Assembly (NCBI RefSeq): GCF_036373705.1
Contig: NC_089863.1
Span: 18,915,406 to 18,979,405 of the forward strand
Origin: Amia ocellicauda
Lineage: Eukaryota
DNA length: 64,000 bases
Reading direction: 5' to 3'
The position numbers were made by a program, and so were the translations under genes. Within the stretch, counting starts at the first letter, position 1. Each line of letters starts with the position of its first letter. Positions 6,658-33,907 of this stretch are shown in pieces. The notes beneath the pieces were generated by a model. That model ran no database searches. It was not told the DNA's origin and worked only from the letters and a program-made list of their open reading frames with translations.

Positions 6658-7609
6658 TATGTGGCAATTTAGAACTCTGGGTCTCTACTTTCTAATGAGC
6701 TCTATGAACCAGTAATACTGAAACATTTAAATTAATAAATACAGGTTTAAATCCAATCCCTCCCAATCCAATATTTAGGAATTTGCTAAATATTTGGGAT
6801 GAAACAGATAATGTGTTTACCTAAACCCAGGAGGAGAACTTGTGAGCACAACCTACCCCCACCAAAAATAAAGTAATCAACACCTCAACTCAAGAGAACA
6901 GTGGTCACCAGAGTGGGTCACATGTCAGTTGTAAAACATTCCCAACCTTAATGAACAGGGTTGTCACAGATGTCACATAATACCTCAAATCTGTGTGGAA
7001 AATATAACTCAATTTTACTGTGTGAAGGCTGTGAAAAAAGAAAACTTCCAAGTTTAGACCTTGACAGCTCCAACCCCCTAATTTGACCCTCTAAGTCCAC
7101 CTTCCAACATGCATGGACCAGCAACAGAAGACAATTTACGCGCCCAAAAAGTGGCATTGAGCGCCATTACTGTCAAGAGCCTTCTGACTGTGTTTTAGAA
7201 AATATATTGTACACACTGTCCACATCTACACGATGTACACACTGAACACATTCAACATTTACACCCTGAACACACTGTTAAAATGTACATACTGACCACG
7301 CTGTGAACATTTACACCCTTATCACACTGTAAAAATGTACACACTGAACACACTGTCAACATCTACACCCTCTATCTCAGTCAATCACCATGTCTATACT
7401 TTATTAACCCTCCCCTCTCTCTTTTTCTCTCTCCATTTCTCTCTCTCTCTCTCTCTCTCCCTCACTCGTGTCAAGCCAGTGTCCTGCAGTGTCCGTCAGT
7501 GTGTCTGTACTGTATTAACCCCTGTCTCTCTCTCTCTCTCGATCTTCCTTATAGATCATCTTATTGCCCCCAAGAGACCGAAAGACAGGCAAAAAGAAGT
7601 CACCAAAAC

Positions 7610-7955
7610 ATGGCTTTAAACACAGAGAACATCCAGCCCCCTCTGGAGGAGAGCGCCACCCCCTCCGCCGGGGAGGACCAGCCACAGCCGGAGGAATCAC
7701 AGGAAGAGGTGGGGCCGCAGACAGCCCCGCACACCGCCCCCTCACCTTCCCCATCTGCTCCCTCCCCCACCGCGGACGCCACCGCTGGCTCCCAGCCAAT
7801 CACAGAGCCGCAGCCGCCCGTCGACCCTGACCCCTGTCCCAGTCCCGCCTCCCCGGTCCTTGCCCCCGTCGCCTCCAAGACCTCCTCCCCTCAGCAGGAA
7901 GTGGTCAAGCCCATACAGGAAGTGGTCATCGTGAATGAGAAGAAAATTGAAAATG
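7610..7955 (+). CDS. prrt2: prrt2 coding exon 1 (MALNTENIQPPLEES...VVIVNEKKIEN, ends phase 1)
   Basis: ATG at 7610-7612 in the frame of ORF 7499..7972. Pro/Ser/Ala-rich N-terminus as in PRRT2. Donor G|GTAAAG at 7956-7957. Confidence 0.7.
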
Positions 7956-8164
7956 GTAAAGTGTGTGTGTGAGTGTTTGAGTGTGTATGTGTGTGTGGCA
8001 CTGAGTTCAGTGTTTAGATTGCAGTGTGATTGAATTAACTGTTTTCTGACTCTCTCCACCCCATCACCCTCTCTCCTCACTCCCACCATCTCCTCTCTCT
8101 TTTTCTCTCTCAGTGTCAGTGTATCAGTGTCCAGTCAGTGTGTCTATCCTGTATTGACCCTCTC

Positions 8165-8199
<35 letters not shown>

Positions 8200-8272
8200 A
8201 GTGCATCGTCAGTCTCCAGTCAGTCAGTCAGTGTCTGTTCTGTATTAACCCTCTCTCTCTCTCTCTCTCTAG

Positions 8273-8544
8273 GTAACGGAGTGCCCATGCTGCCCGCAAC
8301 CTCCACCCCCGACATGAAGCGCTGCCTGCGGGAGCCCAATGGACGGTCGCGGGTGGGCAGCCGCTCGGGGTCTCTGTGCCACGTGGGCGGCTCCCCCCGG
8401 CCCAGCCTGTCCCGCCAGCCCAGCTTGGCTACCAGTGGCCTGGCGGATGGGGAGAAGCCGAGGGACTACCTGCTGCCCGCCATCCTGTCCTGCTTCTGCC
8501 CTGTCTGGCCCCTCAACATAGTGGCCTTCGCTTACTCTGTCATG
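8273..8544 (+). CDS. prrt2: prrt2 coding exon 2 ([24 protein letters not shown]...[27 protein letters not shown])
   Basis: Acceptor (ct)n-tAG at 8271-8272. In frame with ORF 8281..8580. Donor ATG|GTAGGG at 8545-8546. Carries the first transmembrane helix of the CD225 domain. Confidence 0.85.
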
Positions 8545-8635
8545 GTAGGGGTCAGCGCGGGGGTGGGGAGGGGTGTGTAGTCGGTCAGTCAGTGTGTCTG
8601 TACTGTGTTAACCTCTCTCTCTCTCTCTCTCTCAG

Positions 8636-8765
8636 TCCAGGAATAGTCTGCAGCAGGGGAATGTGGACGGGGCTCGTCGCCTGGGCCGTGTAGCCAAGCT
8701 CCTGAGTGTGGTGGCGCTAGTGGGCGGGGCTCTCATCATCATCGCCTGCGTCATCAACTGGACCA
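8636..8765 (+). CDS. prrt2: prrt2 coding exon 3 ([43 protein letters not shown], ends phase 1)
   Basis: Acceptor (ct)n-cAG at 8634-8635. In frame with ORF 8663..8869. Strong donor CCA|GTGAGT at 8766-8767. Confidence 0.85.
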
Positions 8766-9048
8766 GTGAGTCAGTCTGGCTGTCCAATTGTCCAACTAGT
8801 TGTCTATCTGACTGGACTGGACTGGACTGTAGTGTGTGTGTCTGTGCTGTTGTGGATTGTGTGTCTTAACTGGACTGTAGTGTGTGTATATGTTCTGTTC
8901 TGGACTGTGTGTGTCTGTGCTGGACTGTAGTGTGCGTCTGTGCTGTTGTGGATTGTGTGTGTCAGTGCTGTACTGTCTCAGTTTGTGTTATTATCTGTAT
9001 TAACCACACCTCTCCCCTCTCTCTCTCTCTCTCTCTCCTTTCCTCCAG

Positions 9049-9065
9049 TTATGGTAAAATCCTGA
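9049..9065 (+). CDS. prrt2: prrt2 putative terminal coding exon (..IMVKS, stop TGA 9063-9065)
   Basis: Acceptor tcctccAG at 9047-9048 follows a (ct)n tract and restores the frame after the phase-1 donor of exon 3. It adds only 5 aa, so the alternative is read-through of exon 3. Confidence 0.45.
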
Positions 9066-9229
9066 GTTGTCAAAACTTCCACAAATGGATTCAAAAGCAA
9101 CAACAACAACGACAACAACAGCGACAACAACAGCAACAACCCCCATCAGACACCTCTCTCCACCACCCCGTCTCCCCTCTGACTCCTGACCCTTGAACCC
9201 TGACCCCACCAGCCTCAGACCCACCCACA

Positions 9230-9520
9230 AGAGGTCTGCTAGGACTGGTGGACCCAGGATCGACTGACACATCGATTGACCCTTGACACACGGATTGATT
9301 GACCACAGATGCACTGACCCTTATCCCCAAGATCTTCTGACATTTCACCCCAGGATCCAATGACAACGGAGCCTCCAACCATTGACTCCAGTCTCTGCGG
9401 ACAACAAATCTTCTGACCTTTGACCCCAGGCTCTGCTGGTCCTTTTTCCCTGGGATCTACTGACAATGAATCTTCTGACCCTTGACCCCCAGATCAACTG
9501 ACCTACAGAGCTGACCAAAC
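9230..9520. repeat. degenerate ~40-bp tandem repeat (..atcttctgacccttgaccccagg..) downstream of prrt2
   Basis: About 7 imperfect copies are visible. Confidence 0.6.
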
Positions 9521-12500
9521 CCCACCCTCACCCTCATGTCTCTGGATTTAGCTATCCACTGTCCACAGACAGACTTAGGGAAAGACAGATACAGCGACAC
9601 ACAGACCCACGCACACACACAGGCACACACCACACATACAGACTAAATGTAATCCAGTCTGCTTACGGTGTCAATCCTAACACACACACACATAGACTAC
9701 ACGTATAAATACCATATAACAATATACTCTACAACAAAAGATATTACTTGGAAATTGTGTTTCCAGAAGCAGATGCTGCCATTGTTTTCAGAGGTGCCAT
9801 AAAGTAATGCTAAACTGCCTCACTGTGGGCTGCAGTTGCTTCTTTGACTTGATTTTACACTTACAGGCCTAAACACAGTTACACTGCACGAGCAACAGTC
9901 TGAGGGCCACAGCTGTGCAATGCCACACCATGCAGTATACAGTATACACAGTATAGTATAATGCAGTACACTACAGTACAGAGTGGTATGATATAGTTTA
10001 GTGTAGCACAATGCAATGCAGTATAGTATAGTATAGTATATTATAGTGTAGTGCAGTACAATACAGTACAGTGCAGTATACCATAGTATAGTACAGTACA
10101 GTGCAGTATAGTGTAGTGTAGTACAGTTCAGTGCAATATAGTATGCTGTAGTACAGTGCAGTATAGTAGAGTATAGTGCAATCGAATGCAATTACCTTAA
10201 TTGACTGAAAAATGCTGTAATATACTCCACAATATTATAAAACAATACTATACTGGAATATAGTATACAGGCACACACATAAACTGTATACAGACATACA
10301 CACACACACACACGTAGATGATCTGAAGAGAAAATTGTGTGATTTGAGTGACTCATGCCTTCCAAACAGACAGAGAGAGAGAGAGAGAGAGAGACAGAGA
10401 TGGAGAGAGACATCACTGCCACTGTCTAGCCAATACAGCACCACGGAGCAGAGAGAAAGAGGGGGGAGGGGGAGATTGACAGAGAGGAAGAAGACTTTCA
10501 AGAAACAAAAGGAGGAAATGGAAGAGAGGAGGTGTCCGTCTGACAGAGGGAACCCAGCCGGAGTGAGTGACTGCCAGTCTGAACCCATCTGCCGGGTTGA
10601 GAGTTCCATACGTATTATATTTGTATCCGCAGCAGGCGACGTATAGCTTTCATATACCAGCTGAATACATGTGATCCACACATTTATTCATATATTTAAA
10701 ATATACCATTTCAACTCCACCATGTTCTCGTATTGCGAGATTACCCATAAGAACTACAAATGGTCTTGGACTACGCATTTTTTTTTTCGTGGCAACAACA
10801 TGCCTAAAAATTTTTAAATTACAATAAAAATCCCCTGGCAGCAACATGCCCCCAAAATACGACAAAAAAAAAAAAAATTGGATTGGCAGTATATTTTTAT
10901 AGATTCCGTATATTTTCCGAAGGGGAGAACCGTAAAAAACAATGGCGACGGGTTTCAAGGAAGGGCAGCTACTTTTGTTCGGATGATAAAACTTCTCTTT
11001 TGTTAACACTTCCAGCAGCGAGGGCGTGAATGTACCAGTCTGCATCGCCGCAGCGCCCCGAATCGAGACGCCAACACAGTCTCCAAATATATAATTCCAT
11101 ATCTGCAAAAATACAAAAATTGAAAAGCAGAGTGTAGGCTATATCAGGAGCCACAGATGAAGTTCAGGAAGATGAGAAAGATCTTTATTACTGAAGGGAG
11201 AGAGGAGGACAAAAGCAGAGCTCACGCTTCCCACTCCATCTCTGAAGTCTGAGTGAAGCCCACGCGAATATTTATACTGTGAATAAATTCCCATGAGTCA
11301 GCAATCCCATAAATCTTGTCTCCCATAAAAGAACATCTTTAATAGGTGTCTTGAACATCTTTGTTTTACATGTTTAGAGTATCTCAAGCAGGGTCGCAGG
11401 TCGAATGGGCCCCAAAATCCCCTGCTCTCTATTCCCCCAAGTCCAAGTGTATTTGATTAACCTCAGCATTTCTCACATATAAACCGTATTAATACTTAAT
11501 TGTTTTGGTGACTCCGCAGCATGGCCATAATATCCCGCTCGCCGTGTCAACACCCAATAGTGAGAATTTCCGATTCTATGTAAATCGGGATATATTCCAA
11601 ACGTATCATATTCCCAATACTCAACATTTCAGAATTCATGAGCCCTGTTAATGTACCAAAGGCTGTACTGAGGTTTTATTACAGCGGTTGCATACTGTAG
11701 CTGTAGATGAGGCTCTAAGGCCGGGGATTATCACATGTCCGTCCTTTAATATCTGTAAGTTGACTTTTTTTATTAAAGGAATGGGAGGTGATGACCCTCT
11801 CTAATACCGGTCATCTTATCAGTCAGGGCATGCCACTGTGCTAGTGTTGCAGTGGTTTCCTATGGGGTTCAGCCTTAGCTGTGCTTTACAAGGGTCCGAC
11901 CACTGTACAGCCCTGTTAAAAGTGCACAGAGCCTATGGTGCATTTACTGAGGTCAGCTTCTGATAAGCAGAGGATTTGAGAGAGAGAGAGAAACAGAGAG
12001 AGTAGGGAGAGTGAGGGAGGAAACTGAGAGGTATTGAGAGGGAGAGCTTGCACTGCTATTGGCTTCAACTGAAGACAAAACATTGGTTTCAATAGGGATG
12101 TGGAACACATTTGTGTGGGTATGTGAGTGAGGATCTATTAGTATATACTGTGTGAATCCCTGACTCAGCTACTGTGTGATAAGAGACAGGATTGTTTACA
12201 AAATTATGGATCATTACTTACATACACTTTCCTAGTTTGTTCCTGCATTCCAGACAGTCCAGACCTATAATATACTATAGTCCACACAGCACTGGCTCCA
12301 GTCTGGCCCCTGTACTGTAGCTGTGTCTGTAGCTTTAGATGGGACGGTGGGCTGGAGAGCAGTGCTGTCAATGTTTACAATGCCTCCTGTGTGCAGACTG
12401 CCAAATTAGCCGCACACCCCAACTGTGTGTGGTCGAGTCAGTGTGTGACGCTGTTCTCTCTATCTTGTCTTATCCTGTGTGCTTACAGCTATCTCCTCTC

Positions 12501-12800
12501 TCTCCCTTGCTCCTTCTCTCTCTCCCTAATAAACAGCCACAACAGAGCAGGGAGAGGCGATGCGAAAGAGAGACATGGGGAGAGATAGATGGAGAGAGAG
12601 ATACAGAAACAGAGAGAGACATCACAGGTGGAGGGGAACAGCGCGACACACACTCCTCTGTGAAAGACTAAATGCTGCATTATGTTTACAAATAGACTCA
12701 GTTCAATAAGATTAGTGACCTTAATGACTCCAGAGTCCTAGAAAATGTAGTATAGGCTGTAGGATTAAAAGAGATACATGTTTACAAACTGAGGACTGAA

Positions 12801-12840
<40 letters not shown>

Positions 12841-15386
12841 AATAGTTATATGTATGCATGTGTGTGTAATGACATGAACACACACAGAGGAATGTTTTTA
12901 CCACTCTACCTGCCTTTGGAGTTGTTGTATAGTCAGTGACTCTGCAACTACAGTTCAGTACAGCAGGGGTCTCCAGCCCTGGTCCTGGAGAGCTACAGTC
13001 CAGTCCAGTAAAGTACAATCCATTGGGGATGTCGTCCACCAGCACCAGCAAGGAAGCACTGGAGACCCTGGGAGCTGTTGCATGCGTGGGGCGGACAGGA
13101 CGGACAGATTGGAGCATGTTGAGCACCCTTGGGCTGACAGAGAGAGAGAGAGGAGCTGCCCTCAAATGCACAACAGCGCTGTTTTCATATCAAACAATGC
13201 AATCACAAGGGGACCACCTGATGAACTTGATCCTGAGAATGGCCTGAGTATGACCTCTTAAGAGAACTTTCCTTTCACTGGTTTGATGCCTGGAAACCTT
13301 ATTGACAGAATCTCAGATGTGTTTATTGATAAAATGAACAGGAGACCAGGAGGGAAAAATCTTGCAACCCCCTCCTTCCCAATGATCTGCCCTTCAGTAC
13401 AGCCCTGGCTGCTTGGTTGGTATGGTGTGGGTCTTTATTGGCTCAAACACAATCCCAAAGACACTGTAGCCTCCTGCTGTAGAGACACACACACATTCAC
13501 AGACACACATGCTCACTCGCACACACACGCACATTCACAGACATATACACACACTTGCACGTTCACAGACACGCTCACACGCACAGACACGCACACGCAC
13601 AAACACACTCACACATGCACACATGCACAAACACACATGCACGCACACGCACATTCACAGATGCATATGCGTACACTCACAGTCTCTCTCACAAAATCAC
13701 ACGGATCCCTTTCAACACCAGCCTGGGTTCTGGACCCACTCCTTAGTGACCCAGGTTCTGATTGGCTTTAGTGTGAATGCACAGACACAGGGAGACAGTG
13801 GGTCGACCCAGATCAAGAGCTGCCCAGGCTGGAGGTGTGTGAACCAGCCAGCCAGCCAACACAGGCCCGGGCAGAGCCAGGCGACAGGCCCGGCACACGG
13901 TGGGCTGCTGTACTGGTGTTGCAAGGGGCTTGGGTGGATTGGACACCTGGAGTGAGACCGTAGCAGAACTGGAGCCACAATGCCACTGTAATACGCACCA
14001 GACCCCAGAGGGACAGGGCTAATGTCTGCCTCACTGAATAGTGTTTACAGTCCCTGTCAGTCAGTGGTCAGTGCAATGCAGGTCAGTTGTTGAGAGCTGA
14101 TGTTTGCAGCCCGGCCCACGTCTGGCTCGCACAGACAGGCAGGTAGACAGTCTTTTATTTATTTTTATCCTTTCAATCAAACTGAGAGCCTCATGCCTTT
14201 TTGTACCTTTCTCTCTCTTTCTCTCTCACTCTCTCTCCCTTTCTGTCTCTCCTTATCTTTCCTTCTTTCAGAAGCTCTGCCTCTGGCAGGGTGGAATGTA
14301 GTGTACACTGGGACTCTTACCATGTACAGCGCACTGACACAGACACACTTACACACTGACTGACACACAGACACACAAACTCAGACGAACACTTATTCTG
14401 AATGTCAGACACACAGGCACATAGACAGACAAGAGAGACAGACCCAGACCCAGAGCCAAACAGACAGGGCCATCTGGGTGGACAATAGAGAGAGAGAGAC
14501 AGAGAGAGAGGGAGAGTTTGATGAAGGGAAGAGGGTGGGGAGGAGCAGAGGGTGGGGTGGAAACACAATAAAACAAGACACAACACAATACAACACAACA
14601 CGACACGACACGTCAAAGCAACAAACATCTAATTTTGTATAACGTAGGAGGGTCCTATCTATCAGTTTCTGTACGGCGCCCGGCACCACACAGAGACAGC
14701 TGCATGTTTTCTACTGAGAAGCGAGAAAAACAACAAGAAAATGAAAAAAAGATAATAAAACCACAAAAAGAAAACAAAAAAAGAACCATTGTGAATGAAA
14801 ATCGTCTTGCTCTAAGTTTTATACGGAGTGCACAGATATTATTACTACTATTACTATTGTTCATATGATTATGATTATTATTGCTTGTACTATCCTTGGT
14901 CTACTATATATCCACATATATAGAGATGACATATGATTATTATATGCGCTTATCACTTCTCGGATTATTGTTAACATGACTGTTATGATGTGCTTTTCTG
15001 GACTTCTTCCTTTCTGTCTTTCTTTTTGTTTTATTTTGACAACGAATTTCTCGATTGACTTCCCGACTGAGGGATTTATTTTTGTACAATTACTTACTCG
15101 GCCTCTCCGCTCTCGTCTTGCAAATGTCATTACCAGGAGCCTCGGGGTGGGGGCCCTGTGCATGGTTACAGTTTTACTAACGAGCCAGTCAATTAACTAT
15201 TCTTTGATATTTAAGCAAAGGTATAAAAGACTTCGTACAGTGCCACAGTGTTTATCACCAGCTACTTAATGCATTACCTGTCCACTTTTTTTAACGCACC
15301 ATACATTACACAGCTATACGTTTTATATATATCTATATCTATCTATATATATCTATATATACTGTATAAAGATATATGTTCATTTT

Positions 15387-15390
<4 letters not shown>

Positions 15391-15439
<49 letters not shown>
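15391..15439. repeat. (AT)n followed by (GT)n compound microsatellite; similar arrays at 15666-15707 and 15784-15846
   Basis: Dinucleotide runs. A G-rich G4-prone block (ggggttggggggttgggggggtggggggggggttg) lies between them at 15515-15550. Confidence 0.9.
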
Positions 15440-15666
15440 CAAATGTAGGAGTTTCAGCCAGACTCATGCTCTGTTCCATAGTATTGAATTTGATGTAACC
15501 ATGTTGTATGGGGTTGGGGGGTTGGGGGGGTGGGGGGGGGGTTGCATTAATCTGGACTGGAAAGCATAGAAGCACTGGTTTAAGATGCTTGGGTTGGGGG
15601 TGTAAGGATGGAGGAGGAGGGAAGGGAGACAGAAGACATCACCAAAAAGTGTCAAGACGATACACC

Positions 15667-21000: not shown

Positions 21001-21361
21001 CTGTCTGGAAACAGCACCGGCACTCATTTGGTGTGGTTTCAGCTTCATGGCGACTTCCACATCCCGTCTTCTCCCACAGTGACCCGGTGACTGTGACATC
21101 ACACAGGCCCCCGAATAGAGATTTGTTTATCTTTGGAACATTTACCTGTCCCTGTAACACTCGCTCTGTGGGAGAGAGATAATATCACATTTCCTGAATT
21201 TGGATGTTTGTCTCTCTCTCTCAGTCAGTGTGTCTGTACTGTATTTAACTCAAATTCAAATTCAAAGGTGCTTTATTGGCATGACCAATCACAACATTGT
21301 CAAAGCAGATACAAGTGTACTACTCTCGCTCTATCTCTCTCTTTTTTGGGTGTGCAGGCAG

Positions 21362-22406: not shown

Positions 22407-22503
22407 GTACACAGTGTGTCAATCAGTTTGTCAATATGTCAATATGTGTGTCAGTCAGTCAGCGTGTCCGTCTACCCTTCTTACCCTCCCTCCTTCTCTC
22501 CAG

Positions 22504-23989: not shown

Positions 23990-24895
23990 TGTGTTATTAA
24001 GGAATATCAGACCGCCACCCTATGGCCTGTGCAGCCGACACACATTATTGCATGTAACCCCCCAATAGAGGCAGTTCAGAGGAGAGCAACCAGACTTATT
24101 CCAGGTCTGAAGGGAAAGTCCTACTGAGAGACTGAGGAACTGAACCTTTTCACCCTGGAACAGAGGAGACTACATGTCCACTATAATTACACTATGGGAG
24201 GTACAGATCTAGATGAAGTAACACATGAGAAAGACCTAGGAGTCTATGTGGACTCCTCACTTTCTCCATCCAAACAATGTGGGGAAGCAATAAAAAAGGC
24301 AAACAGAGTGTCAGGGTATATTGTTAAAAGTGTAGAATTGAGAACAAGGGCAGTGATGTTCAGACTGTACAATGCACTAGTTAGAGCTCATCTGGATACT
24401 GTGTGCAGTTCTGGGCTCCACACTTCAAGAAAGATATCGCTGCTCTAGAGGCAGTTCAGAGGAGAGCAACCAGACTTATTCCAGGTCTGAAGGGAATGTC
24501 CTACTGAGAGACTGAGGAACTGAACCTTTTCACCCTGGAACAGAGGAGACTACGTGGGGACTTGATTCAAGTCTTCAAAATCATGAAAGGCATCGACCAC
24601 ATCAAACCAGAGGAGCTTTTCCAGATCAGCAGGGACACACGCATCCGGGACACAAATGGAAATTGGGCTTCAAGGCATTCAAGACAGAAAACAGGAGACA
24701 CTTCTTCACACAGAGAGGCGTCACAATCTGAACAAACTCCACAGCGATGTGGTTGATGCTGAAAATTTGGGAACATTTAAAAATAGACGGGATAGGATCC
24801 TTGGATCACTTAGTTACTAATGGACACCAAACGAGCACGATGGGTCGAATGGCCTCCTCTCGATTGTAAACTTTCTTATGTTCTAATAGAGTTCA
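23990..24895 (+). mobile_element. 3' end of a CR1-like LINE (ORF2 C-terminus plus tail) with an internal duplication
   Basis: Translation gives ..[87 protein letters not shown]....NRRHFFTQR..NKLHSDVVDAENLGTFKNR.DRILGSL, the characteristic CR1/jockey-like ORF2 C-terminus. The tail ..ggtcgaatggcctcctctcgattgtaaactttcttatgttcta is CR1-like. The segment 24040-24180 is repeated at 24440-24545. Confidence 0.75.
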
Positions 24896-26044
24896 GTGAG
24901 AGGAGAAAGGTCTTTACGCTCCCAGAGAGGGGAATCGGGTTAGGAGGGCAGTCCTCATGTCAGCACTATCATCTCGGAAGCTCTTCTCGAAATATATGCA
25001 CTATTTATGCAGTGAATACCCACAAAAGAAACAACAATAGGTAACTTAACACCTCTGTTCAGGTCTAGAGGCTCAATAGAGCTTTTCCTCCCTGTAAGGA
25101 AAGGAGCAACCAACTATCAATACACACTGTTCTACAGCTTACATATCCGTTAACTACCTAAAGCAGGTATACTTACCGAATAGCCAGCAATTTCCAAATT
25201 TCTTTCAGCTGGTTTGATATTTGACTGTTCTTACAAATAAAGTAGCTCAATAATTGTGCAACTGGTGAGACTGTACCTTTTCCCGATTAGTTAACTTGCT
25301 CTTGGGAAGGTTACAGTGTTTTTCTCCCCATTGCCTTTGGAAGAGTTGCTGATTGCAACTGCTTGTAACACATTTCCCACAGTTCTTAACTACCCGATGC
25401 AATTGTAAGAGCCGCAAAGGCAGGCAGCTTCAGTGCATCTGATTGGCATTAATTGTCACCTCATTTGCATAGTCTCCTCCCTGTTTTAGAGGCTTTTTGC
25501 AGAAACACCCAGAATGAAATCTTAAATCAACGGCTGAAACACGCTGGCAGATTGTTGCTGCAAAACTGTAAACCACACAAAAGCTGTGGTGTTAGTCCAC
25601 GCCTCCCCAACATCGATTGCAACGGGTTAACAGCTCTTAAACCATGCGCAATCTTGTCGTACATCCAGCCCGTTGAGAAAGATTTAAAGATTGTGATGGG
25701 TTATTTGGGTGTAGATTTGAGGAGAATGGGATAGGGTGTAGGATGAAATATACAGTCAGCCTGTGATAAATCTTGCCAACATTGTACAGTCACACACACA
25801 CACTGTTCAATGTACACATGATGTATCAGTCTGTAGTGGATGTGTATTACTGTGTACAGTCAGTCTATTGTCAATGTGTCATGTAAAAAGTTACAGCTTT
25901 TAGGTATTACAAGATTTAAGGTATAAGAAAATAAGTTAAAACATAATGAATGTGTGGCAGGGTGTCTGGGAGTGGCAGGGTATGGCAGTGTGGCAGGGTG
26001 TCTGGGTATCAGGCAAACATAATTCCATTTAACTTGCATAGGCT

Positions 26045-26050
26045 TTTATT
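26045..26050 (-). terminator. mvp: candidate mvp polyadenylation signal (AATAAA on the minus strand)
   Basis: This is the first AATAAA on the minus strand downstream of the mvp stop, about 550 nt away. No closer hexamer was seen. Confidence 0.3.
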
Positions 26051-26313
26051 CCTCATTATATGGACAACAGTTTCCACTACAGCCTGTTAAACAGTTACAC
26101 ACACAGCAGTGGTCCTTCATGTAGCAGACAGACAGACTGCTGCCTCCCATCTACAGACACTGTCATTGCAAGCTCTGTAGTCAGTTATCAGACATCAACC
26201 GTTGGCCTGATCAGGGTGCGGAGGTGCCATTTCCCATTGGAGTATATATCCCAATGGTAGCAGCCGGCAAAGGCAAATGGTAAGCAAGAAAGAGAGAGTC
26301 TTCTACGGTACAC

Positions 26314-26352
<39 letters not shown>

Positions 26353-26600
26353 GAAGGGGGGGAGAGAGAGAGGGAGGAAGGGAGAAAGAGAGAACGAGAG
26401 ATGCAAAGGAGGAAGAGTTTACAGTTTTAAGGCTTTTTAGTGCATAACAGTGAGAGGCAGCTCCGCAGATCCTCAGGGGACACTGTACAAACGGCGCCCA
26501 TCTCTCTCCACAACTTCTCCTCCTCGCTCCTCTCCCCCTCTCTCTCTCCCTCCTGCTCTCCGGGACCGGCCCTCTCTCCCCCGCCCTCCCGCTGGCCCCC

Positions 26601-26729
26601 TCACTGCTTGCCCACCCCCGGGGCCTGCAGCGTCCCCAGCAGGCCGGAGGCGGCGGTGAAGAGGTTGACCGGGGATGAGCCGTCGGTGATGAGAGTGGAC
26701 TGCAGCCCCAGAGACTGGAGCAGCTTCAC
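26601..26729 (-). CDS. mvp: mvp terminal coding exon ([42 protein letters not shown])
   Basis: Acceptor tgtctctcAG at 26731-26730. Stop TGA at 26603-26601. Matches human [32 protein letters not shown]. Confidence 0.9.
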
Positions 26730-26765
26730 CTGAGAGACAGAGGGAGAGAATCGGGTTGGGAGGAG

Positions 26766-26935
26766 TGAGGGTCGGTCACGGTCAATAAATAGTGGTCAGT
26801 GAGGGTCGGTCACGGTCAATATCGGTCAGTGAGGGTCGGTCATGGTCAAGAGCGGTCAGTGAGGGTCGGTCACAGTCAATAGTGGTCAGTGGGGGTCAGT
26901 CATGGTCAATAGCAGTCAGTGAGGGTCAGTTTCCC
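26766..26935. repeat. 30-bp minisatellite (ggtcagtgagggtcggtcacggtcaata..), about 6 copies, in the last mvp intron
   Basis: Tandem near-identical units are visible in the sequence. Confidence 0.85.
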
Positions 26936-27058
26936 ACATGGGAATCAACGGGGCTTAGTAGCGCTCATGTCAGAGAGTGTGAGTCAGTAGTGGTCAGTGT
27001 GGGCTAGCAGTGTTCAGATTGGGTGAGTGAGTCTGTCATGGCCAGCAGTGGTCAGTAC

Positions 27059-27247
27059 CTGCAGCTCGGGCCCTGAGCGGGCGATGTCGCGGACGGTCTC
27101 GGCCCCGATGCTGTCCATCATTGCCTTGAAGCGCTTGCTCTCGATGGTGACCAGCTTCTCCTGCTTCTCCACTTCCAGACGGATGGTCTCCTGCTGGAAC
27201 TGCAGCTCCTGCTCCCGAGCCTTCGCCAGCCTCAGCAGCTCCGCCTC
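27059..27247 (-). CDS. mvp: mvp exon (EAELLRLAKAREQELQFQQETIRLEVEKQEKLVTIESKRFKAMMDSIGAETVRDIARSGPELQ)
   Basis: Acceptor (ct)n-gcAG at 27249-27248. Frame of ORF 27014..27343. Donor CAG|GTACTG at 27058-27057. Confidence 0.9.
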
Positions 27248-27389
27248 CTGCAGAGAGAGAGAGAGAGTGGGGGGTTCATACAGTATAGACACACTGACTG
27301 ACTGACACAGCGTCTGACTGACTGACGCACTGCCTGTGTGCATGTCTGCCTGCCCCAGCCCCGGTCCTGCCCCCGGCCCCAGTCCTCAC

Positions 27390-27516
27390 CGCCTCGATTT
27401 TCTGTGCCTCGGCTCTCAGCTTGGCCTCCTCCACCGCTGCCTCCCCCTGTATGCGCGCCGCCTCCGCCTTGGACTGCGCCTCCGCCTTGGCAGCGCCGGT
27501 GCTCTCCACAGCGGCA
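27390..27516 (-). CDS. mvp: mvp exon ([43 protein letters not shown])
   Basis: Acceptor cgtttcAG at 27518-27517. Frame of ORF 27276..27671. Donor GCG|GTGAGG at 27389-27388. Confidence 0.85.
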
Positions 27517-27722
27517 CTGAAACGGCAGGGCAGCATCAGAGTTGGCACCGCCGGCACCATTACCACGGGCACTACTACTACGATTATTACCACTTTTATT
27601 ATTACTACTAGTATAATAATATTCATAATAATTATTATGTTCATAGTAGCAGAAAAGCTATGTGCATGCACGAATGAGTGAGTGAGTGTGTGTATGGGTG
27701 AGTATGTATGGGAGCAGCTGAC

Positions 27723-27839
27723 CTGAGGGCCTCCAGCTCCAGCAGCTCTTTCCTGGCCTTCTCGGCCTGCGCCTGGTCACTGATGCGCTGCCTCTCCAGC
27801 CGTCCCCGAGCCTCTTGCTCCAGACGCTCCGCCTCGTGC
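27723..27839 (-). CDS. mvp: mvp exon ([39 protein letters not shown], ends phase 2)
   Basis: 112-bp intron. Acceptor (ct)n-cAG at 27841-27840. Frame of ORF 27641..27865. Donor CAG|GTCAGC at 27722-27721. Confidence 0.85.
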
Positions 27840-27951
27840 CTGAGAGAGAGAGAAACAGGAGTCAATACAGTACAGACACAGTGACTGACTAACTAATAGG
27901 TGTAAACAGCACTGCAGGCAGAGGTGTTACAGTGTGTGTGTGTGTGCGTAC

Positions 27952-28163
27952 CGTGCAGATGCCTCCTGTGAGTTGGTGGTGATCTCAATGGCCAGCTGCA
28001 CGCTCTTCTGCAGCGCGTCGCGGGTGCGCTGGTCCACCGGCTCCACGGACTGGATGTCCACGCTGGTGATCATCAGCCCGTTCTGGGGGAAGCACAGGCT
28101 GGAGCGCAGCTTCACCGACTCGTCGAAGCCGAACACGGCCGAGCAGATGATTCGGTTCGAGTT
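27952..28163 (-). CDS. mvp: mvp exon ([70 protein letters not shown], ends phase 2)
   Basis: Acceptor gggacccAG at 28165-28164. Frame of ORF 27927..28136. Donor ACG|GTACGC at 27951-27950. Confidence 0.85.
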
Positions 28164-28281
28164 CTGGGTCCCGGAGAGGTGTGGAGAGAGAGTTTAGCAC
28201 CTCAGGGCCTCAGTCAGTGTGTCGGCGTGTCAGTGTGCAAGTCAGTCAGTGTGTCAGCGTGTGAGGGTGTCAGGGTCACAC

Positions 28282-28426
28282 CTTGTGGAAGTCGTCGAAC
28301 TGCACGGAGGCAACGGCGCCCCTGATGCGGGAGGCCAGGGCCTTGCAGGCGTCGCCGATGAAGTCTGGCACAGAGAAGATCTTGGATGCCTCAGCACCCT
28401 TCGCATCCTGTGACACCTCGAAGTGC
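28282..28426 (-). CDS. mvp: mvp exon ([49 protein letters not shown])
   Basis: Acceptor ctcctctcAG at 28428-28427. Donor AAG|GTGTGA at 28281-28280. Matches human [48 protein letters not shown]. Confidence 0.85.
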
Positions 28427-28578
28427 CTGAGAGGAGCGGAGACACGGCACACTGGGTCACTCTGCAGCTCGTTAGTAGAGACACTCCATAGCTCGTTAAC
28501 CCCGAGTCACACTATAGGAAATACACATGGCACACACAGCCCAGCCCTGCCACACTCACACACTCAGCCCAGCTTTAC

Positions 28579-28776
28579 CAGTTGTAGGAGAGCTGCAGCT
28601 GCAGGCGGGCGTGGTCGGCGGTCTCAATGGTGATGACGTCGGTGCAGAAGTCGGGGCCCAGCAGCAGGCAGATGGCCTTGATGACGTTGGAGCGCTTGGG
28701 CTTGTCCCCCGACAGAGACAGCACGGTGAACTGCTCATCTGGTCCCAGCATCACCAGCTCAGGCCCAAACACCACC
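28579..28776 (-). CDS. mvp: mvp exon ([66 protein letters not shown], ends phase 2)
   Basis: Acceptor ctccctcAG at 28778-28777. Frame of ORF 28575..28775. Donor CTG|GTAAAG at 28578-28577. Confidence 0.9.
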
Positions 28777-28890
28777 CTGAGGGAGAGAGGGAGGGATTAT
28801 AAACACATTGACTGACTAGCTGAGTCTGTATCTAGCAGTCCAAATATTGCCAATATAGCCCAGTCTGTACCCAGCCATTCCCCACTGTAC

Positions 28891-29135
28891 CTGGCCTTCT
28901 TCTCTCTGTAGTCGTACACTTGCACAGCAGCGTTGTGTGGTACCCTGTAGGAGACAACGCGGGTGCGGTCCCTGGGCTCCTCGGGTCCCTGGCGTTCGTG
29001 CCCTCTCCGCTCCGAGCGGTCAGCCAGGGGGTCTTGGGCGGCGGCCAGCAGGCTCTCCACGTTGGGTGGCAGATCCTTCTCCCACAGCTCCTCGTCCTGG
29101 GTCAGCATGTAGGTGTGCCCGATCATGGCACGCAC
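28891..29135 (-). CDS. mvp: mvp exon ([81 protein letters not shown], ends phase 2)
   Basis: Acceptor cctccccAG at 29137-29136. Frame of ORF 28797..29135. Donor CAG|GTACAG at 28890-28889. Confidence 0.9.
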
Positions 29136-29550
29136 CTGGGGAGGGACCGGCCAATGGGGAGCGAGTTAGCGGGACCAAGGAGCCAATGAGGGCTTATTTG
29201 GGCAGGCTGGGGGTGGGGGAATTGAAACTGTCTGAGTTTGAGCCCATTGGTAAATTCCAACACTAGTTAGCATCTCTGTTCTCATAGTAACTGCATTGTC
29301 ATAAACAAGGTAGATGATACATGTGAGGGGGTCAATTTAAGTAACCGAAAATAACCCATATTCCCCATCAATGATAATGGGAAAATGCAAGTCACACAAT
29401 TCATAATCATTAATACTAGTGTAATCATTAAATCACTGACACTAGTAATGACATCACCAATCGTGATAATGACATCAATAAACACTACAAAGAAAGCCTC
29501 TTCCTCTTCCTCTTCCCCTCTCCTCCCTCCCTCCCTCCCTCTCTCTCTAC

Positions 29551-29745
29551 CTTCCCACTCTTGATGTCTCGGATGTAGATCCCCTCGTTCTCGTCCAGCG
29601 GTATGGCCTGTCGCTGTAGCAACACCTCCACCCCCACCGGTGGCACGTATTCCAGCGGCCCACGCAGCATCCAGCGGTCCCCGGGGCGACGGAGCACCCC
29701 CCTCTCCCCTTCCTCTCCCTCCTCCGCTTCCCGCTCCGTCTCCTG
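29551..29745 (-). CDS. mvp: mvp exon ([65 protein letters not shown])
   Basis: Acceptor (ct)n..cactcacAG at 29747-29746 ends a 2.1-kb intron that carries an antisense LINE. Frame of ORF 29485..29697. Donor AAG|GTAGAG at 29550-29549. Confidence 0.9.
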
Positions 29746-29879
29746 CTGTGAGTGAGAGAGAGAGAGAGAGAGGGCGAGTTAATACAGTGCAGACTTACTG
29801 ACCGGACACTGACACTGCACTGAGAGAGAGGGGCATATGATGCCTGCTTTAAAAGCATTGAGTTGAGAGAGAGAGAGAG

Positions 29880-31425
29880 AGAGAGATGACACAGAAGTCA
29901 AATTCCTGCTCTATGCGGATGGCCTAGTCCTGCTGTCGCCCACAGAGCAGGGGCTTCAGCAAAACCTGGCACTGCTAGAGCAGTACTGTCAGTCCTGGGC
30001 CCTGGCAGTAAACATGAAGAAGACAAAGATCATGATCTTCCAAAAAAATACTGTTTTATTAGGTTAAGTATTTTACAATCAAAATAAAAACAAACAAAAC
30101 AAATTTTAATACTTCCAAAAAAAGGCCAGACCTCAGGGAAACAAATACCACTTCACGCTAGGCAACACTACCCTAGAACACACCTCACACTACACTTACC
30201 TGGGCCTGACTATTAGTGCGTCAGGGGGTTTTAACCTGGCAGTGAAGGCACTCAAAGACAAAGCAAGAAGAGCTTTCTACGCAATCAGAAGAAGATTCTA
30301 TAACATTAATATTCCAGTCAAAATCTGGCTCAAACTAATTGACAGTGTGATCCAGCCCATTGCGCTGTACGGTAGTGAAGTATGGGGTCCACTCAGTCAA
30401 CAGGACTACACTAGGTGGGACAGACATCCAATAGAGACCCTGCATGCTGAACTCTATAGAAACATACTGCAGGTGCACAGGAACACACCAAACCACGCAT
30501 GCAGGGCAGAATTAGGCCACTTCCCAACCCTCATTAATATAAAGAAAAGAGCACTGAAATTCTGGATGCACCTGAAGAAAAGTGAGTCAGACTCACTCCA
30601 GTACAAGGCCCTCCAAACCCAAGAGCTCAGCCCTGAAAAGAGTCCCCTGAGTCAGCTGGCCCTGAAGCTCACGGCACTGACCCCCGCTAATACTGCGAAC
30701 AGAGACCAGCTTCAGGTCAGCACTGCTTACCTGCCCCCAATTAGAGTCAACCAAATCATAAAGATAACCAAAACCTCCTATCTGGAACATTGGAACAATG
30801 AAACCAAATCCCAAAGTAAATTGGATTGCTATCGGGCCCTAAACAGAGAATACACCCTGGCAGAGTCTCTCTTCACTGTCAGAGATACGAAGCAGAGACG
30901 GATCCTGACCAAGTACAGTGACCACAGCCTGGCCAGAGAGACGGGCCGACACAGGCAGAGCCGGCTGCCCAGAGAGGAGCAGCGCTGTGGTCACTGCGAG
31001 ACAGGAGAGGTCGAGACAGAGATGCACTTCCTCCTTCACTGCAATAAATATGCCAAAATAAGGGACACATTCTTTAATAAATTCATAAATATTATAAAAT
31101 AATTTTCTGAATTGATAAATCCCCTCCTGGGGGAGGGACACACAGCCCCCCTGGCTGCCCAATATGTAGCCGCCTGCCACTGTGAAAACATACATGAGCA
31201 CCAGCTGTAAACTTGTAAACTATAAATAAAGTAAATGTACATGTCTATTAAGATTTTATTTATAAATTATATTGTACTGTTTCAATTTTTTATTTTTTTT
31301 CCTCCTTTTTCTTACCTTTTATTATTTTTCAATGTATGTATATAATATCAACTGCTTTGGCAACACTACAAAACTGTTTGTCATGCCAATAAAGCACCCT
31401 TGAATTGAATTGAATTGAGAGAGAG
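29880..31425 (+). mobile_element. 5'-truncated non-LTR retrotransposon (L2/CR1-superfamily-like LINE) lying antisense inside an mvp intron
   Basis: The reverse-transcriptase motif ..LLYADGLVLLS.. lies near 29890. ORF 30242..31102 carries the RT thumb/C-terminal domain (..IALYGSEVWGP..) and ends with a zinc-knuckle-like segment (CGHCETGEVETEMHFLLHC). The 3' tail ..caaagcacccttgaattgaattgaattgag(ag)n recurs at other loci in this window. Confidence 0.75.
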
Positions 31426-31887
31426 AGATGAATACAGCCCTGACACAGAGAGAGAAGGGGGTGGTTAAACAGTGAGACACTAATATTATAGTGAATGGGA
31501 GACAGATACATATCTCAGCCCCAGCCACTCCCTCTTTCCGCTCATTCCCCCTCAGTGTCAGTGAAGCACCAGCATCCTTCCCTCTCTCTCTCTCTATTTA
31601 TATGGCCAGTCCGTACCAGTGTGTATATATGACCAGTCTGTATCAGTCTCTATATGGCAAGTCTATAACCCTTATCCAGGGTGACTTACAATTGTTACAA
31701 CATATCAAATTATTTTTACATTTTTTCACATTTTACATTACTGGAGCAATCTAGGTAAAGTATGGCCAGTCTGTACCAGTCTGAATATGACCAGACTGTC
31801 ATAGTGGTCTGTACATGGTCAGTAGAGCACAGTCTGTGTGTGGCTCATCTATAGCAGTGTCTACACCTTGCCCTCCCTCTTGCTCAC

Positions 31888-32013
31888 CCCCTCAGTGTCA
31901 GTGAAAGCCTCCACGGCTCTGAGCACCAGCCCCTCGTCCTCCGACAGGATGTACACGTCTTGGATGCCTTGTTCCAGGTTCTCCCCAGGTTGCAAGAAGA
32001 ACGACTTCTCCCC
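31888..32013 (-). CDS. mvp: mvp exon ([42 protein letters not shown])
   Basis: 99-bp intron. Acceptor (ct)n-cAG at 32015-32014. Donor GGG|GTGAGC at 31887-31886. An alternative in-frame donor AAG|GTGTAG 21 nt downstream would add VSKREGK. Confidence 0.8.
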
Positions 32014-32112
32014 CTGAGAGAGAGAGAGAGCGAGAGAGATGAATACACACACGGACACACAGACAGACACACACACAGTCACCCCCCCAACCCCTGCACC
32101 GCCGCCACCTAC

Positions 32113-32349
32113 CTTGACAACCCTCTTCTGGCCCAGCTGCGGCTTGCCGTCGGGCCCCAGGGGGTCCAGCACCACGCAGTACTGCCGGCCGGTCAGCGTG
32201 GTCACCTGCACCACGCCCACCACCTCCTCGCTCACCTCGGGGATGTGCGCCTCGCAGTCGGCCAGCGTGATCAGCCACTCCTCACCCGTGCGCCGCAGCC
32301 GGCCGCCGGCATCCCGGAACGAGCGCAGCGCCCGCACGTGGAGCGCTTT
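32113..32349 (-). CDS. mvp: mvp exon ([79 protein letters not shown])
   Basis: Acceptor ctcccAG at 32351-32350. Frame of ORF 31861..32436. Donor AAG|GTAGGT at 32112-32111. Confidence 0.9.
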
Positions 32350-32688
32350 CTGGGAGGGAGGGAGTGAGGGAGAGAAGGAAATGACGCTGTGCACTGTGAA
32401 TACAACATGTCTGTTTATATCTGATAAAGTCTTCAATATCTAATGATTGTATCTGTTGTTCCTGAACACTGGGCCTGTCTGGCAATGCTTTGGCCACACT
32501 GATGTCACTCAGTCATGCCCATAAAGCTTCCTTGATTTGAATTGAGAGAGAGAGGGGATGTAATAGAGACAGTCACTCACTGACTGACCGATAGAAACAC
32601 AACAAAGATCAGAGAGAGACTGACAGGCACACAGAGAGACAGTGGGACAGTCACATAGACAGACAGAGGGACGGATGAGCAGCAGTAC

Positions 32689-32783
32689 CTTTTCGGTCAG
32701 TACGAAGGCATTGACAATGTCGATCACCTCCTCGTGGACTCCGGGGAGGTAGGCCCCCACTTTACGCACCAGCCACTCCTCCC
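32689..32783 (-). CDS. mvp: mvp exon ([32 protein letters not shown])
   Basis: Acceptor gccccAG at 32785-32784. Frame of ORF 32509..32853. Donor AAG|GTACTG at 32688-32687. Confidence 0.85.
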
Positions 32784-32959
32784 CTGGGGCGACACACACA
32801 CTGTCACAGTATGACACAGTCTCACACAGACGATCACTTCCACATGCAGTCACACAGCAGTCTCACACATGTCACTCTGTGATTGCTATTCCTGTCCAGT
32901 GTGTAGAGGTCAGTGTCGTGTTTAGTGTGTAGTGAGCGGCGCTGCGGTCAGTGTCTCAC

Positions 32960-33091
32960 CAGTCACTCTCTGATTGCCGTTCCTGTCCAGCCCCTCCTTG
33001 CGGGCGCGCAGCCGGATGGCCTGGTTGTGCTGGATCACCGTGGCCTTCACCGTCTCCATGACCTCCACCTCCTTTCTGGGAATATAGGTCC
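32960..33091 (-). CDS. mvp: mvp exon ([44 protein letters not shown])
   Basis: Acceptor gcgttAG at 33093-33092. Donor ACTG|GTGAGA at 32959-32958. Matches human [32 protein letters not shown]. Confidence 0.8.
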
Positions 33092-33214
33092 CTAACGCAC
33101 AAACACAGCACAGCAGTGCGTCACACCCATCCTGTCAATCTGCTTGTCACTCTCTGTCACTATCACCCACTCACTCCCGGTTCCCCTGTCCCCCGTGTCC
33201 CCAGGATCTCTAAC

Positions 33215-33338
33215 CGGGCCCTTCGAACAGCCACTCGTCCCCAGCGATCCTCTTCTCCCCGTCGGCCTCCTCGAAGTCCAGCAGTGAACGCAGACGCAGG
33301 GCAGAGTCTGGCAGCACCACTTGCAGAGGAGCTATGTT
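33215..33338 (-). CDS. mvp: mvp exon ([41 protein letters not shown], ends phase 1)
   Basis: Acceptor cctccAG at 33340-33339. Frame of ORF 33210..33395. Donor CCG|GTTAGA at 33214-33213. Confidence 0.85.
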
Positions 33339-33627
33339 CTGGAGGTGGGGGGAGGGGGGTGGGAAGACAACCAGTGTGTACAGTGTGTCAGTCAATGTGT
33401 ACAGTCAGTGCATCAGTGTGTACAATGTGTCAGGGTGTACAGTATGTCAGTCCATGTGTACAGTGTGTCAGTCAGTGTGTAGTCAGTGTGTACAGTGCAT
33501 CAGCTAGAGTGTACAGTGCATCAGCCAGAGTGTACAGTCAGTGTGTACAGTGTGTCAATCAATGTGTACAGTCAGTGTGTACAGTGCGTTATCCAGTGTG
33601 TACAGTGTGTCAGTGTAGGATTCAGAC

Positions 33628-33823
33628 CTGCTGCAGCTCCTCTCCAGGGTACAGGGGAAAGGGCTCCTGGGTCAGCCGGATCTCCAGGTCGGCATGGCGC
33701 AGCTTGGCCTGCCCCGCCTGGTCGAACTGGACACGACCCTCGTCATCGCGGGCGACTGGATTGACGATGACACAATAATGGCGCGGGGGCACCATCAGCA
33801 TCCGCACTGGACTGAACAGTACC
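33628..33823 (-). CDS. mvp: mvp exon ([66 protein letters not shown])
   Basis: 84-bp intron. Acceptor (ct)n-cAG at 33825-33824. Same frame as ORF 33622..34056. Donor CAG|GTCTGA at 33627-33626. Confidence 0.85.
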
Positions 33824-33907
33824 CTGAGAGAGAGAGAGGAGAGAAAGGTAAGGAGGGAGGGAGGGAGGGAGTGTGTTTGCAGTGTATTACACGCCCAGTG
33901 TGCGTAC

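Follow-up and report, generated by a model that had tools for sequence, protein, structure and literature searches.

A minisatellite monomer at the 3' ends of ancient introns in a bowfin gene neighbourhood, and its tandem arrays in gar

When introns of unrelated genes end in the same sequence, did that sequence give rise to the introns or did it arrive later? The question is raised by a window of 64,000 nt from the bowfin Amia ocellicauda (Holostei; NC_089863.1; the window means this whole stretch), in which a composite module, built of a (CAGT)n run, a conserved core and a (CT)n tract closed by AG, recurs directly upstream of splice acceptors. A first-pass annotation had proposed that a repeat was rebuilding intron 3' ends or, alternatively, that introner-like elements had generated the introns. 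We have taken in the four adjacent genes prrt2-like, pagr1, mvp and tlcd3b with their 26 acceptors, and have compared them with the same genes in other vertebrates, the module being sampled in a single syntenic neighbourhood per species. The reading that we favour, and to which we would give a probability of roughly 55%, is that the monomer of a holostean minisatellite colonised the 3' ends of existing introns and took over the role of the 3' splice site.

The recurrence itself is real, and the pattern is stronger than had first been described. With up to three mismatches, the 20-mer GTGTCTGTACTGTATTAACC occurs ten times in the window where dinucleotide-preserving shuffles predict 0.01, and a looser core pattern yields 7 matches against 0.13 expected. 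A profile built from seven clear copies, searched with nhmmer on both strands, gave 18 matches at E<1e-3. The monomer is ~50-65 bp long and can be written (CT)nCAG/TGCAGTG..(CAGT)n..GTGTCTGTA(CTGTA)TTAACC-(CT)n-CAG. It has two fixed edges, CAGTGCAG straight after (CT)n at the 5' side and (CT)n plus CAG at the 3' side, which enclose a variable (CAGT)n/GTGT stretch followed by the core GTGTCTGTACTGTATTAACC. A (CT)n tract lies on either side of the copies, whose orientation is fixed relative to the (CT)n strand, and similarity among the bowfin introns is limited to their 3' 50-90 nt. Two-unit tandems are found at 8103-8272, 7377-7554 and 40791-40904, and bowfin single copies retain the (CT)nCAG by which a preceding unit would have been joined to them, which is what array remnants should show. 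A structured non-coding RNA was considered and rejected, since Rfam gave no family match in the window and single units or introns showed no thermodynamically unusual fold (z-scores of -1.9, -1.7 and +0.1).

The copies are strongly tied to acceptors. The profile matches at E<1e-3 at 9 of the 26 acceptors and at 0.0011 at a tenth, and four more carry visibly degenerate or variant copies, bringing the total to 14. Half of the 18 profile matches end 30 nt or less from an acceptor (binomial P=5e-16), and the acceptor copies are all in sense orientation, in genes on both strands. Counting (CT)n tracts of at least five units on either strand, we found 83 in the window, 12 adjoining acceptors and 71 elsewhere; a TATTAAC-like core lies just upstream of 9 of the 12 but of only 6 of the 71 (Fisher P=2.7e-6). 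The association is therefore not a side effect of frequent (CT)n at intron ends, and the module is not the merely abundant, pyrimidine-rich satellite that had been named as the alternative. The copies identified in the window are as follows.

7377..7422 (+): degenerate upstream monomer in the prrt2-like 5' untranslated region (5'UTR) intron, ATGTCTATACTTTATTAACC plus a CT-rich tract; nhmmer E=5e-5, 3-mismatch match to the 20-mer.
7463..7554 (+; profile copy 7486-7533): monomer and pyrimidine tract up to the putative prrt2-like 5'UTR acceptor AG at 7554; exact 20-mer at 7501-7520, nhmmer E=2e-13, TTAAC at 36 nt from that AG, the interval being AG-free.
8103..8196 (+; copy 8126-8172): upstream monomer of the tandem pair in prrt2-like intron 1, followed by a (CT)n of its own; nhmmer E=2e-11 and alignment.
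8197..8272 (+; copy 8216-8260): terminal monomer of prrt2-like intron 1, whose (CT)n-AG is the acceptor; nhmmer E=6e-12, exact RefSeq product, TTAAC at 24 nt from the AG, the interval being 100% pyrimidine.
8566..8635 (+): monomer that accounts for most of prrt2-like intron 2 (8545-8635, 91 bp) and provides the acceptor; nhmmer E=2e-14, exact RefSeq product.
8975..9048 (+): degenerate monomer, only ATCTGTATTAACC and (CT)n, at the prrt2-like intron 3 acceptor; weak profile match at E=0.65, exact RefSeq product.
21221..21249 (+): partial copy without downstream (CT)n, just upstream of pagr1; nhmmer E=6e-8, 2-mismatch match to the 20-mer.
22440..22503 (+): degenerate monomer that ends the last pagr1 intron (22407-22503, 97 bp) at its acceptor; nhmmer E=0.0011, orthology from tblastx and sequence.
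27248..27331 (-): monomer, mvp intron 14 acceptor; nhmmer E=4e-15, match to isoform X2, TGAAC 27 nt from the AG.
27840..27912 (-): monomer, mvp intron 12 acceptor (intron of 112 bp); nhmmer E=2e-13, match to isoform X2, TTGAC 22 nt from the AG.
28777..28830 (-): weak degenerate monomer, mvp intron 9 acceptor; nhmmer E=5e-4, match to isoform X2.
29746..29828 (-): full monomer following the (CT)nCAG junction of a lost upstream unit, mvp intron 7 acceptor; nhmmer E=8e-6, exact match to isoform X2, alignment.
32014..32068 (-): variant GTGTGTATTCATC(TC)n-CAG, mvp intron 6 acceptor; profile only, at E=2.5, the gar intron 6 acceptor being similar (GGGTGTCTTCACC...(TC)n-CAG).
34050..34112 (-): degenerate monomer CAGTGTCCATATTAAC(TC)n..ACAG, first mvp acceptor; from sequence, the acceptor of RefSeq isoform X1.
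34973..34999 (+): partial copy upstream of mvp and antisense to it; nhmmer E=3e-7.
40791..40904 (+): two-unit remnant between tlcd3b and mvp, with the unit junction ..CCCAG/CGCAGTG.. kept; nhmmer E=2e-5 and 3e-5, sequence.
43675..43765 (+): full monomer with (CT)n, away from any acceptor, directly past the tlcd3b stop codon and antisense to tlcd3b; nhmmer E=3e-13, alignment.
43813..43854 (+): shortened non-acceptor copy, 118 bp downstream of the 43675..43765 copy; nhmmer E=2e-7.
44463..44575 (-): divergent variant ..CAGTCAGCATAAACTGTACTCACC-C10-(TC)n-CATCAG at the acceptor of the last tlcd3b intron; from sequence.
46390..46492 (-): full-length monomer including the GTGTACTGCAGTG segment, also present in the gar unit, and (TC)27, tlcd3b intron 3 acceptor; nhmmer E=3e-4, sequence, alignment.
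46802..46880 (-): monomer ..GCTTATGCTGTATTAACC-C6-(TC)n-CAG, tlcd3b intron 2 acceptor; nhmmer E=6e-6, sequence, TTAAC 18 nt from the AG.
59887..59994 (-): 99%-identical duplicate of 44469-44575 without an exon; blastn, 108 bp at 99% identity.

Most of the sites listed in the first-pass annotation hold up, and some need to be recast. Clear copies lie at the prrt2-like 5'UTR acceptor, in intron 1 (two in tandem) and intron 2 of that gene, and in the mvp introns ending at 29746, 27840 and 27248. At the acceptors 9048, 28777, 32014 and 44463 the module is present, but as degenerate or variant copies; the site given as 44463-44530 is indeed a sense copy at the last acceptor of tlcd3b, a minus-strand gene, though of the variant form. 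The mvp intron ending at 33824 had to be struck from the list, having a C/T-rich tract and no core. Among the sites away from acceptors, those at 21221, 40791, 43695 and 43813 are clear copies, whereas 52361-52379 contains the (CAGT)/GTGTCTGT part only. The one placed at 59876-59990 is not an independent, typical copy: it is the duplicate at 59887-59994, which reproduces the variant module that closes tlcd3b intron 4, together with ~45 nt upstream, 15 kb from its source. The short mvp introns (introns 1, 6, 9, 11 and 12, 84-118 bp) had been described as consisting almost entirely of the module; this applies to intron 12 (112 bp), which is largely a clear module, whereas introns 6 and 9 have weak copies and introns 1 (84 bp) and 11 (118 bp) none. 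Acceptor copies not previously listed were found in tlcd3b (46802 and 46390), mvp (34050) and pagr1 (22503).

That these AGs serve as acceptors follows in most cases from exact agreement with annotated products. The prrt2-like gene, spliced at 7955/8273, 8544/8636 and 8765/9049, gives a 254-aa product identical to XP_066578093.1, 'trafficking regulator of GLUT4 1' of Amia ocellicauda, which makes the source a holostean where the first-pass annotation had assumed a teleost. On the minus strand, mvp has 15 coding introns, and its spliced 864-aa product is identical to RefSeq isoform X2; isoform X1 (875 aa) has an upstream coding exon, is spliced at acceptor 34050 and reads MASDAP/AKKSRMDM. The module-closing AGs at 8272, 8635, 9048, 34050, 29746, 28777, 27840 and 27248 are thus annotated acceptors. 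The two annotated N-termini of MVP lie at 34029-34050 (minus), isoform X2 beginning at MDM inside the exon of X1. For tlcd3b, a minus-strand gene with five coding exons whose 336-aa model is not an exact database product, the acceptors are proposed from reading frame and homology only, as is the putative 5'UTR acceptor at 7554; pagr1 was recognised via tblastx against gar.

At all 14 module-bearing acceptors the unit has sequence features like those of a 3' splice site. Its TATTAAC resembles the branch-site consensus, UACUAAC in yeast and yUnAy in vertebrates. A branch-site-like TTAAC, TGAAC or TTGAC is present at each of the 14, with the putative branch A 18-57 nt from the AG (18-36 nt in 12 of them), and the interval between the two is 81-100% pyrimidine and contains no AG dinucleotide. 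Judged by its sequence, the monomer reads as a complete 3' splice-site cassette of branch-site-like TTAAC, pure pyrimidine tract and CAG. The proposal that a repeat is rebuilding intron 3' ends is therefore supported in substance: annotated acceptors owe their AG and pyrimidine tract, along with a branch-site-like motif, to the module, which belongs to a family with many copies.

What kind of family this is becomes apparent in the spotted gar, where we covered ~150 kb in the MVP locus with its neighbour PAGR1 (L006) and the locus of the prrt2-like orthologue (L008), against ~40 kb in bowfin. In the MVP locus the bowfin profile matches hundreds of times. The gar unit, as defined by Tandem Repeats Finder (TRF), is 62 bp (CTCTCTCTCAGTGCAGTGTTAATGTACTGGAGTGTCCAGTCAGTGTGTCTGTATTAACCCCT) and is repeated head-to-tail 16-39 times at 93-95% matches, and introns of the same genes are filled, up to their acceptors, with arrays of 8-54 copies in sense orientation. 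In MVP, 62-bp arrays occupy intron 2 (x32.5), intron 5 (x26.5) and intron 15 (x28), and intron 1 is filled by a 34-bp relative (x95). The last intron of PAGR1, a minus-strand gene, holds ~70 units on the opposite strand, its bowfin orthologue being the 97-bp intron with one degenerate unit. In the prrt2-like gene (PRRT2L), arrays are found in the 5'UTR intron and in introns 1 and 2, and the same introns carry the module in bowfin. All eight gar arrays are sense to their gene, the six with a mapped acceptor all run into it, and several begin 0-25 nt from the donor. Bowfin copies align along the whole gar unit with the same 5' and 3' edges, at 76-97% identity over aligned columns and with several indels.

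The arrays are head-to-tail repeats of a 10-100 bp unit, and the units are homogenised, as in concerted evolution, so that the family qualifies as a minisatellite. Monomers of one array are 0.94-0.96 identical and those of different arrays 0.935-0.96 (seven arrays, three genes, both strands, ~150 kb), and the variants GTCTG/GTGTG and TTAAC/TGAAC occur in all. Since monomers are as alike between arrays as within them, there must have been recent spread or continuing exchange between the gar arrays. The gar monomer has GTACTG 16 nt after its CAG, and can be read as a 16-nt spacer and a 46-nt GT..AG mini-intron.

The age of the host introns decides whether the module could have created them. On an 862-aa model starting MSAES, and comparing exactly mapped splice sites, the mvp introns follow residues 40, 106, 147, 191, 223, 302, 344, 409, 490, 556, 605, 675, 714, 757 and 820. 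They are shared, phases included, as follows.

Spotted gar: all 15, matching in residue and phase.
Tarpon: all 15, likewise.
Icefish Champsocephalus: all 15, likewise.
Reptile Rhineura: introns 1-11.
Herring: introns 1-9.
Great white shark (Carcharodon): introns 1-8.

Every module-bearing mvp intron is among the shared positions. As positions and phases are ancient and the bowfin similarity is confined to the 3' part of the introns, introner-like elements creating introns are rejected for mvp: the module did not create these introns but moved into ancient ones. The two mvp introns that had been noted to begin alike, introns 1 and 12, do both open with GTACGCACAC, but the module does not include it: in tarpon, too, the orthologous intron 12 begins with GTACGCAC, which identifies the motif as conserved donor context. 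Many mvp donors read GTAC.. (33907, 27951, 32688, 27058), with GTACTG in introns 5 and 15.

The family itself has a narrower range. The core pattern gives 194 and 46 matches in the two gar loci and a single match in the herring locus, and none in the smelt, icefish, tarpon, sturgeon, reedfish, Rhineura and shark loci of the same genes (the Osmerus locus, L001, a duplicated and messy scaffold, was used only loosely); none of these eight loci has the module itself. Within the loci sampled, the family appears to be confined to holosteans, and in place of the dispersed teleost repeat first supposed we have the monomer of a minisatellite family restricted to that group. Metagenome scans with the 20-mer and with the gar/bowfin consensus pattern gave no match, six sequence strings searched on both strands in full-text literature were in no paper, and a recent gar genome paper makes no mention of tandem repeats or introns. 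The family is common to both species and its positions turn over. Occupied mvp introns in gar are 1, 2, 5 and 15, with a variant in intron 6, and those in bowfin are the first acceptor and introns 7, 12 and 14, with weak copies in introns 6 and 9. Shared occupancy of orthologous introns was rejected as proof of vertical retention, in view of the overlap and acceptor similarity given below.

How might a minisatellite monomer have come to end so many introns? We would propose that the repeat entered pre-existing introns at (CT)-type pyrimidine tracts, that its arrays lengthened and shrank through slippage or unequal exchange, and that exchange at the DNA level, with the flanking (CT)n as anchor, carried units from one intron to another. 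After displacement of the original branch site, the acceptor-proximal monomer would be the working 3' splice site and would be retained by selection, while other copies would decay. Such a ratchet, with selection on the terminal unit and decay elsewhere, predicts the sense-oriented, acceptor-abutting copies of bowfin.

Several points weigh against this proposal. Its weakest link is the route of spread: exchange anchored in (CT)n should leave copies at many ordinary (CT)n tracts, but a core is missing from 65 of the 71 tracts away from acceptors, so that selection or another bias must be invoked. Five to six bowfin copies (34973, 40791, 40871, 43695, 43813) are found away from acceptors, either outside genes or antisense to them. 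Nearly every gar MVP intron is filled by some minisatellite, and reaching intron ends is thus not unique to this family. The occupied introns of gar and bowfin overlap in 5 of 21 comparable cases, against 4.7 expected by chance, and the similarity of 40-mers next to orthologous acceptors barely exceeds that of non-orthologous pairs (permutation P=0.04); individual insertions accordingly need not share ancestry. The TTAAC adenosine is a putative branch point, and the decoy AGs of gar are presumed to be silent. With one neighbourhood per species, the family could also be a regional, possibly subtelomeric, peculiarity.

An unlikely alternative is that only relics are seen, the gar-bowfin ancestor having already had arrays of which bowfin kept the selected terminal unit, with no movement between introns since. 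The same unit edges in the same genes of both lineages would fit this, as would the occupation in both species of the prrt2-like 5'UTR intron and introns 1 and 2, the last pagr1 intron and mvp intron 6, the slightly greater likeness of orthologous 40-mers and the very slow sequence evolution reported for holosteans (PMC12863190). However, the other occupied mvp introns differ between the species and the overlap does not exceed chance; the gar arrays in three genes lack array-specific signatures, which requires recent spread or continuing exchange, and a variant has been copied over 15 kb in bowfin at 99% identity.

More doubtful, as a stronger version of colonisation, is that the monomer is a self-propagating, selfish 3' splice-site cassette that colonises existing introns, its spread being coupled to transcription or splicing, for example through templates of intron-derived RNA, and that it becomes indispensable once the host branch site is displaced. 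If so, it would be a vertebrate relative of introners with a different logic, and gar would be tolerating dozens of tandem consensus acceptors per intron. Coupling of spread to splicing or transcription through the RNA of excised introns, whether by intron-RNA-templated repair or by reverse splicing and reverse transcription, we regard as having a slim chance when taken by itself. It would directly explain the strictly sense orientation of genic copies on both strands and the ending of copies and arrays exactly at the acceptor AG, and it would suit both the mini-intron reading of the gar monomer (16-nt spacer, then GTACTG...TATTAAC..(CT)n..CAG) and the tie to acceptors instead of (CT)n tracts at large. 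Intron positions are unchanged, so that exons have not been targets of reverse splicing; some copies are non-genic or antisense (40791, 43695, 43813), no partner bearing a reverse transcriptase was found, and slippage and conversion at the DNA level more easily explain tandem arrays and shared variants.

It is improbable that the module is the 3' tail of a retroelement, a short interspersed element (SINE) or a Kibi-type long interspersed element (LINE) targeting (TC)n, that inserted in (CT)n and found in intronic (CT) tracts merely frequent targets. Copies do have (CT)n on both sides and a fixed orientation to the (CT)n strand, and Kojima and Fujiwara are said to have described (TC)n-specific LINEs in fishes in 2004. 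The 65 core-less tracts speak against it, as do the fixed 5' edge CAGTGCAG, where variable 5' truncation would be expected, and the head-to-tail organisation in gar. The flanks of gar arrays and bowfin copies share only (CT)n, in which a (CT)n target-site duplication is indistinguishable from the repeat itself. ARAGORN found no tRNA-like sequence in the window, and next to the copies there is neither a longer version bearing an open reading frame (ORF) nor an ORF for a reverse transcriptase or endonuclease. The (CT)n-tract test and the gar arrays led to the rejection of an inserted element that targets (CT)n, and a SINE does not agree with a unit of just 50-65 bp that has no tRNA-like sequence and no Rfam family.

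Two readings retain next to no credit. That the module-bearing introns arose as introner-like insertions draws on short introns that are largely module (prrt2-like intron 2, 91 bp; mvp intron 12, 112 bp) and on gar introns that are whole arrays starting close to the donor, but is opposed by the positions and phases shared with gar, tarpon and icefish, and in part with reptile (1-11) and shark (1-8); the published introner survey reports none in vertebrates, and it filters out tandem and low-complexity families (PMC9860276). That strong 3' splice sites beside common (CAGT)n microsatellites arose separately in each intron could appeal to core-less (CT)-type tracts (mvp introns 1 and 15; tarpon introns 5 and 13) and to the CAGT/GTGT-rich simple sequence common in the window, but is contradicted by the shuffle controls, by a non-repetitive 20-50-nt sequence shared at 0-3 mismatches, by unit edges alike in two species and by 240 pattern matches in the gar loci against 0-1 in eight others.

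The surroundings of the module deserve some mention in their own right. The bowfin mvp gene spans 7.4 kb and that of gar 41 kb. Gar MVP (L006 10001-51259) has kb-scale minisatellites in its introns, among them those of intron 9 (46-bp unit, x187) and intron 12 (66-bp unit, x89), and in intron 10 (L006 34970-36959) the last ~100 nt of exon 10 and the donor are repeated ~13 times, giving tandem pseudo-exon ends. The 66-bp unit of intron 12 (L006 39293-45183) recurs upstream of the gar prrt2-like gene (L008 4141-4705), which implies that other minisatellite families of the region are also dispersed. An 88-bp unit x66 upstream of the gar MVP start codon (L006 4256-9992) contains (CT)nCCCAG in gene orientation. 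In bowfin, the last tlcd3b exon (43977-44462, minus) encodes a long His/Ser and poly-Ser tail (...S12). The window further holds two Tc1-like transposase remnants, the first frameshifted, and CR1/L2-like reverse-transcriptase C-terminal fragments downstream of mvp (5323-6446, 39245-39730 and 24128-24753, all +), as well as a 43-bp minisatellite unrelated to the module at 57911-58713 (18.7 copies, 94% matches).

Should the pattern hold genome-wide, gar introns would set before the real acceptor 26-54 tandem cassettes, each a near-consensus combination of branch site, pyrimidine tract and CAG. The annotated gar products use the last cassette, which would make these introns a natural experiment on how decoys are avoided, be it by exon definition or by the AG/T versus AG/G context. 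Colonisation as we propose it would also be a route to repeat dependence, in which a neutral or selfish tandem repeat is made indispensable by replacing a host splice signal. In slowly evolving holosteans, intron content would be turning over at positions that have been fixed for hundreds of millions of years. Similar intron ends, then, need not mean intron gain, and tandem and low-complexity filters hide such families.

Repeat-derived splice sites are known from antisense Alu elements, which provide SINE-derived 3' splice sites to new, mostly alternative exons inside introns. As there, a repeated element donates polypyrimidine tract and AG, but the holostean repeat forms the acceptors of ancient constitutive exons, carries a branch-site-like motif and occurs in tandem arrays. 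In CFTR intron 8, the composite microsatellite (TG)m(T)n adjoins the acceptor AG on its upstream side and acts as its pyrimidine tract. The position and role of the repeat are alike, but CFTR is a single locus of pure microsatellite, whereas here a unique 20-50-nt core is found at at least 14 acceptors and in two species. Kibi elements are (TC)n-specific retrotransposons without long terminal repeats (non-LTR), whose likeness to the module lies in copies embedded in (CT)n at a fixed orientation; the module differs in its fixed 5' edge, its tandem organisation, the lack of any longer ORF-bearing element seen and the fact that most (CT)n are empty. CeRep25B of C. elegans is a mostly intronic minisatellite with regional chromosome clusters and splicing-related motifs (PMC4039745), and resembles the holostean family in all three respects, but it is near-palindromic, and abutment on acceptors, strand specificity and supply of 3' splice sites have not been reported for it (PMC4039745). 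Introners, finally, also share sequence up to the splice boundary in introns of many unrelated genes, carry splice signals and are found in aquatic lineages (Gozashti et al. 2022, PMC9860276). They create new introns at new positions, whereas the bowfin module sits in ancient ones, is similar only at the intron 3' end and has as its unit a tandem repeat, a class filtered by the introner pipeline (PMC9860276). Set beside these systems, in which both repeat-derived splice sites and intronic minisatellites are already known, the holostean family stands out by its scale, its strand specificity and the tandem decoy acceptors of gar.

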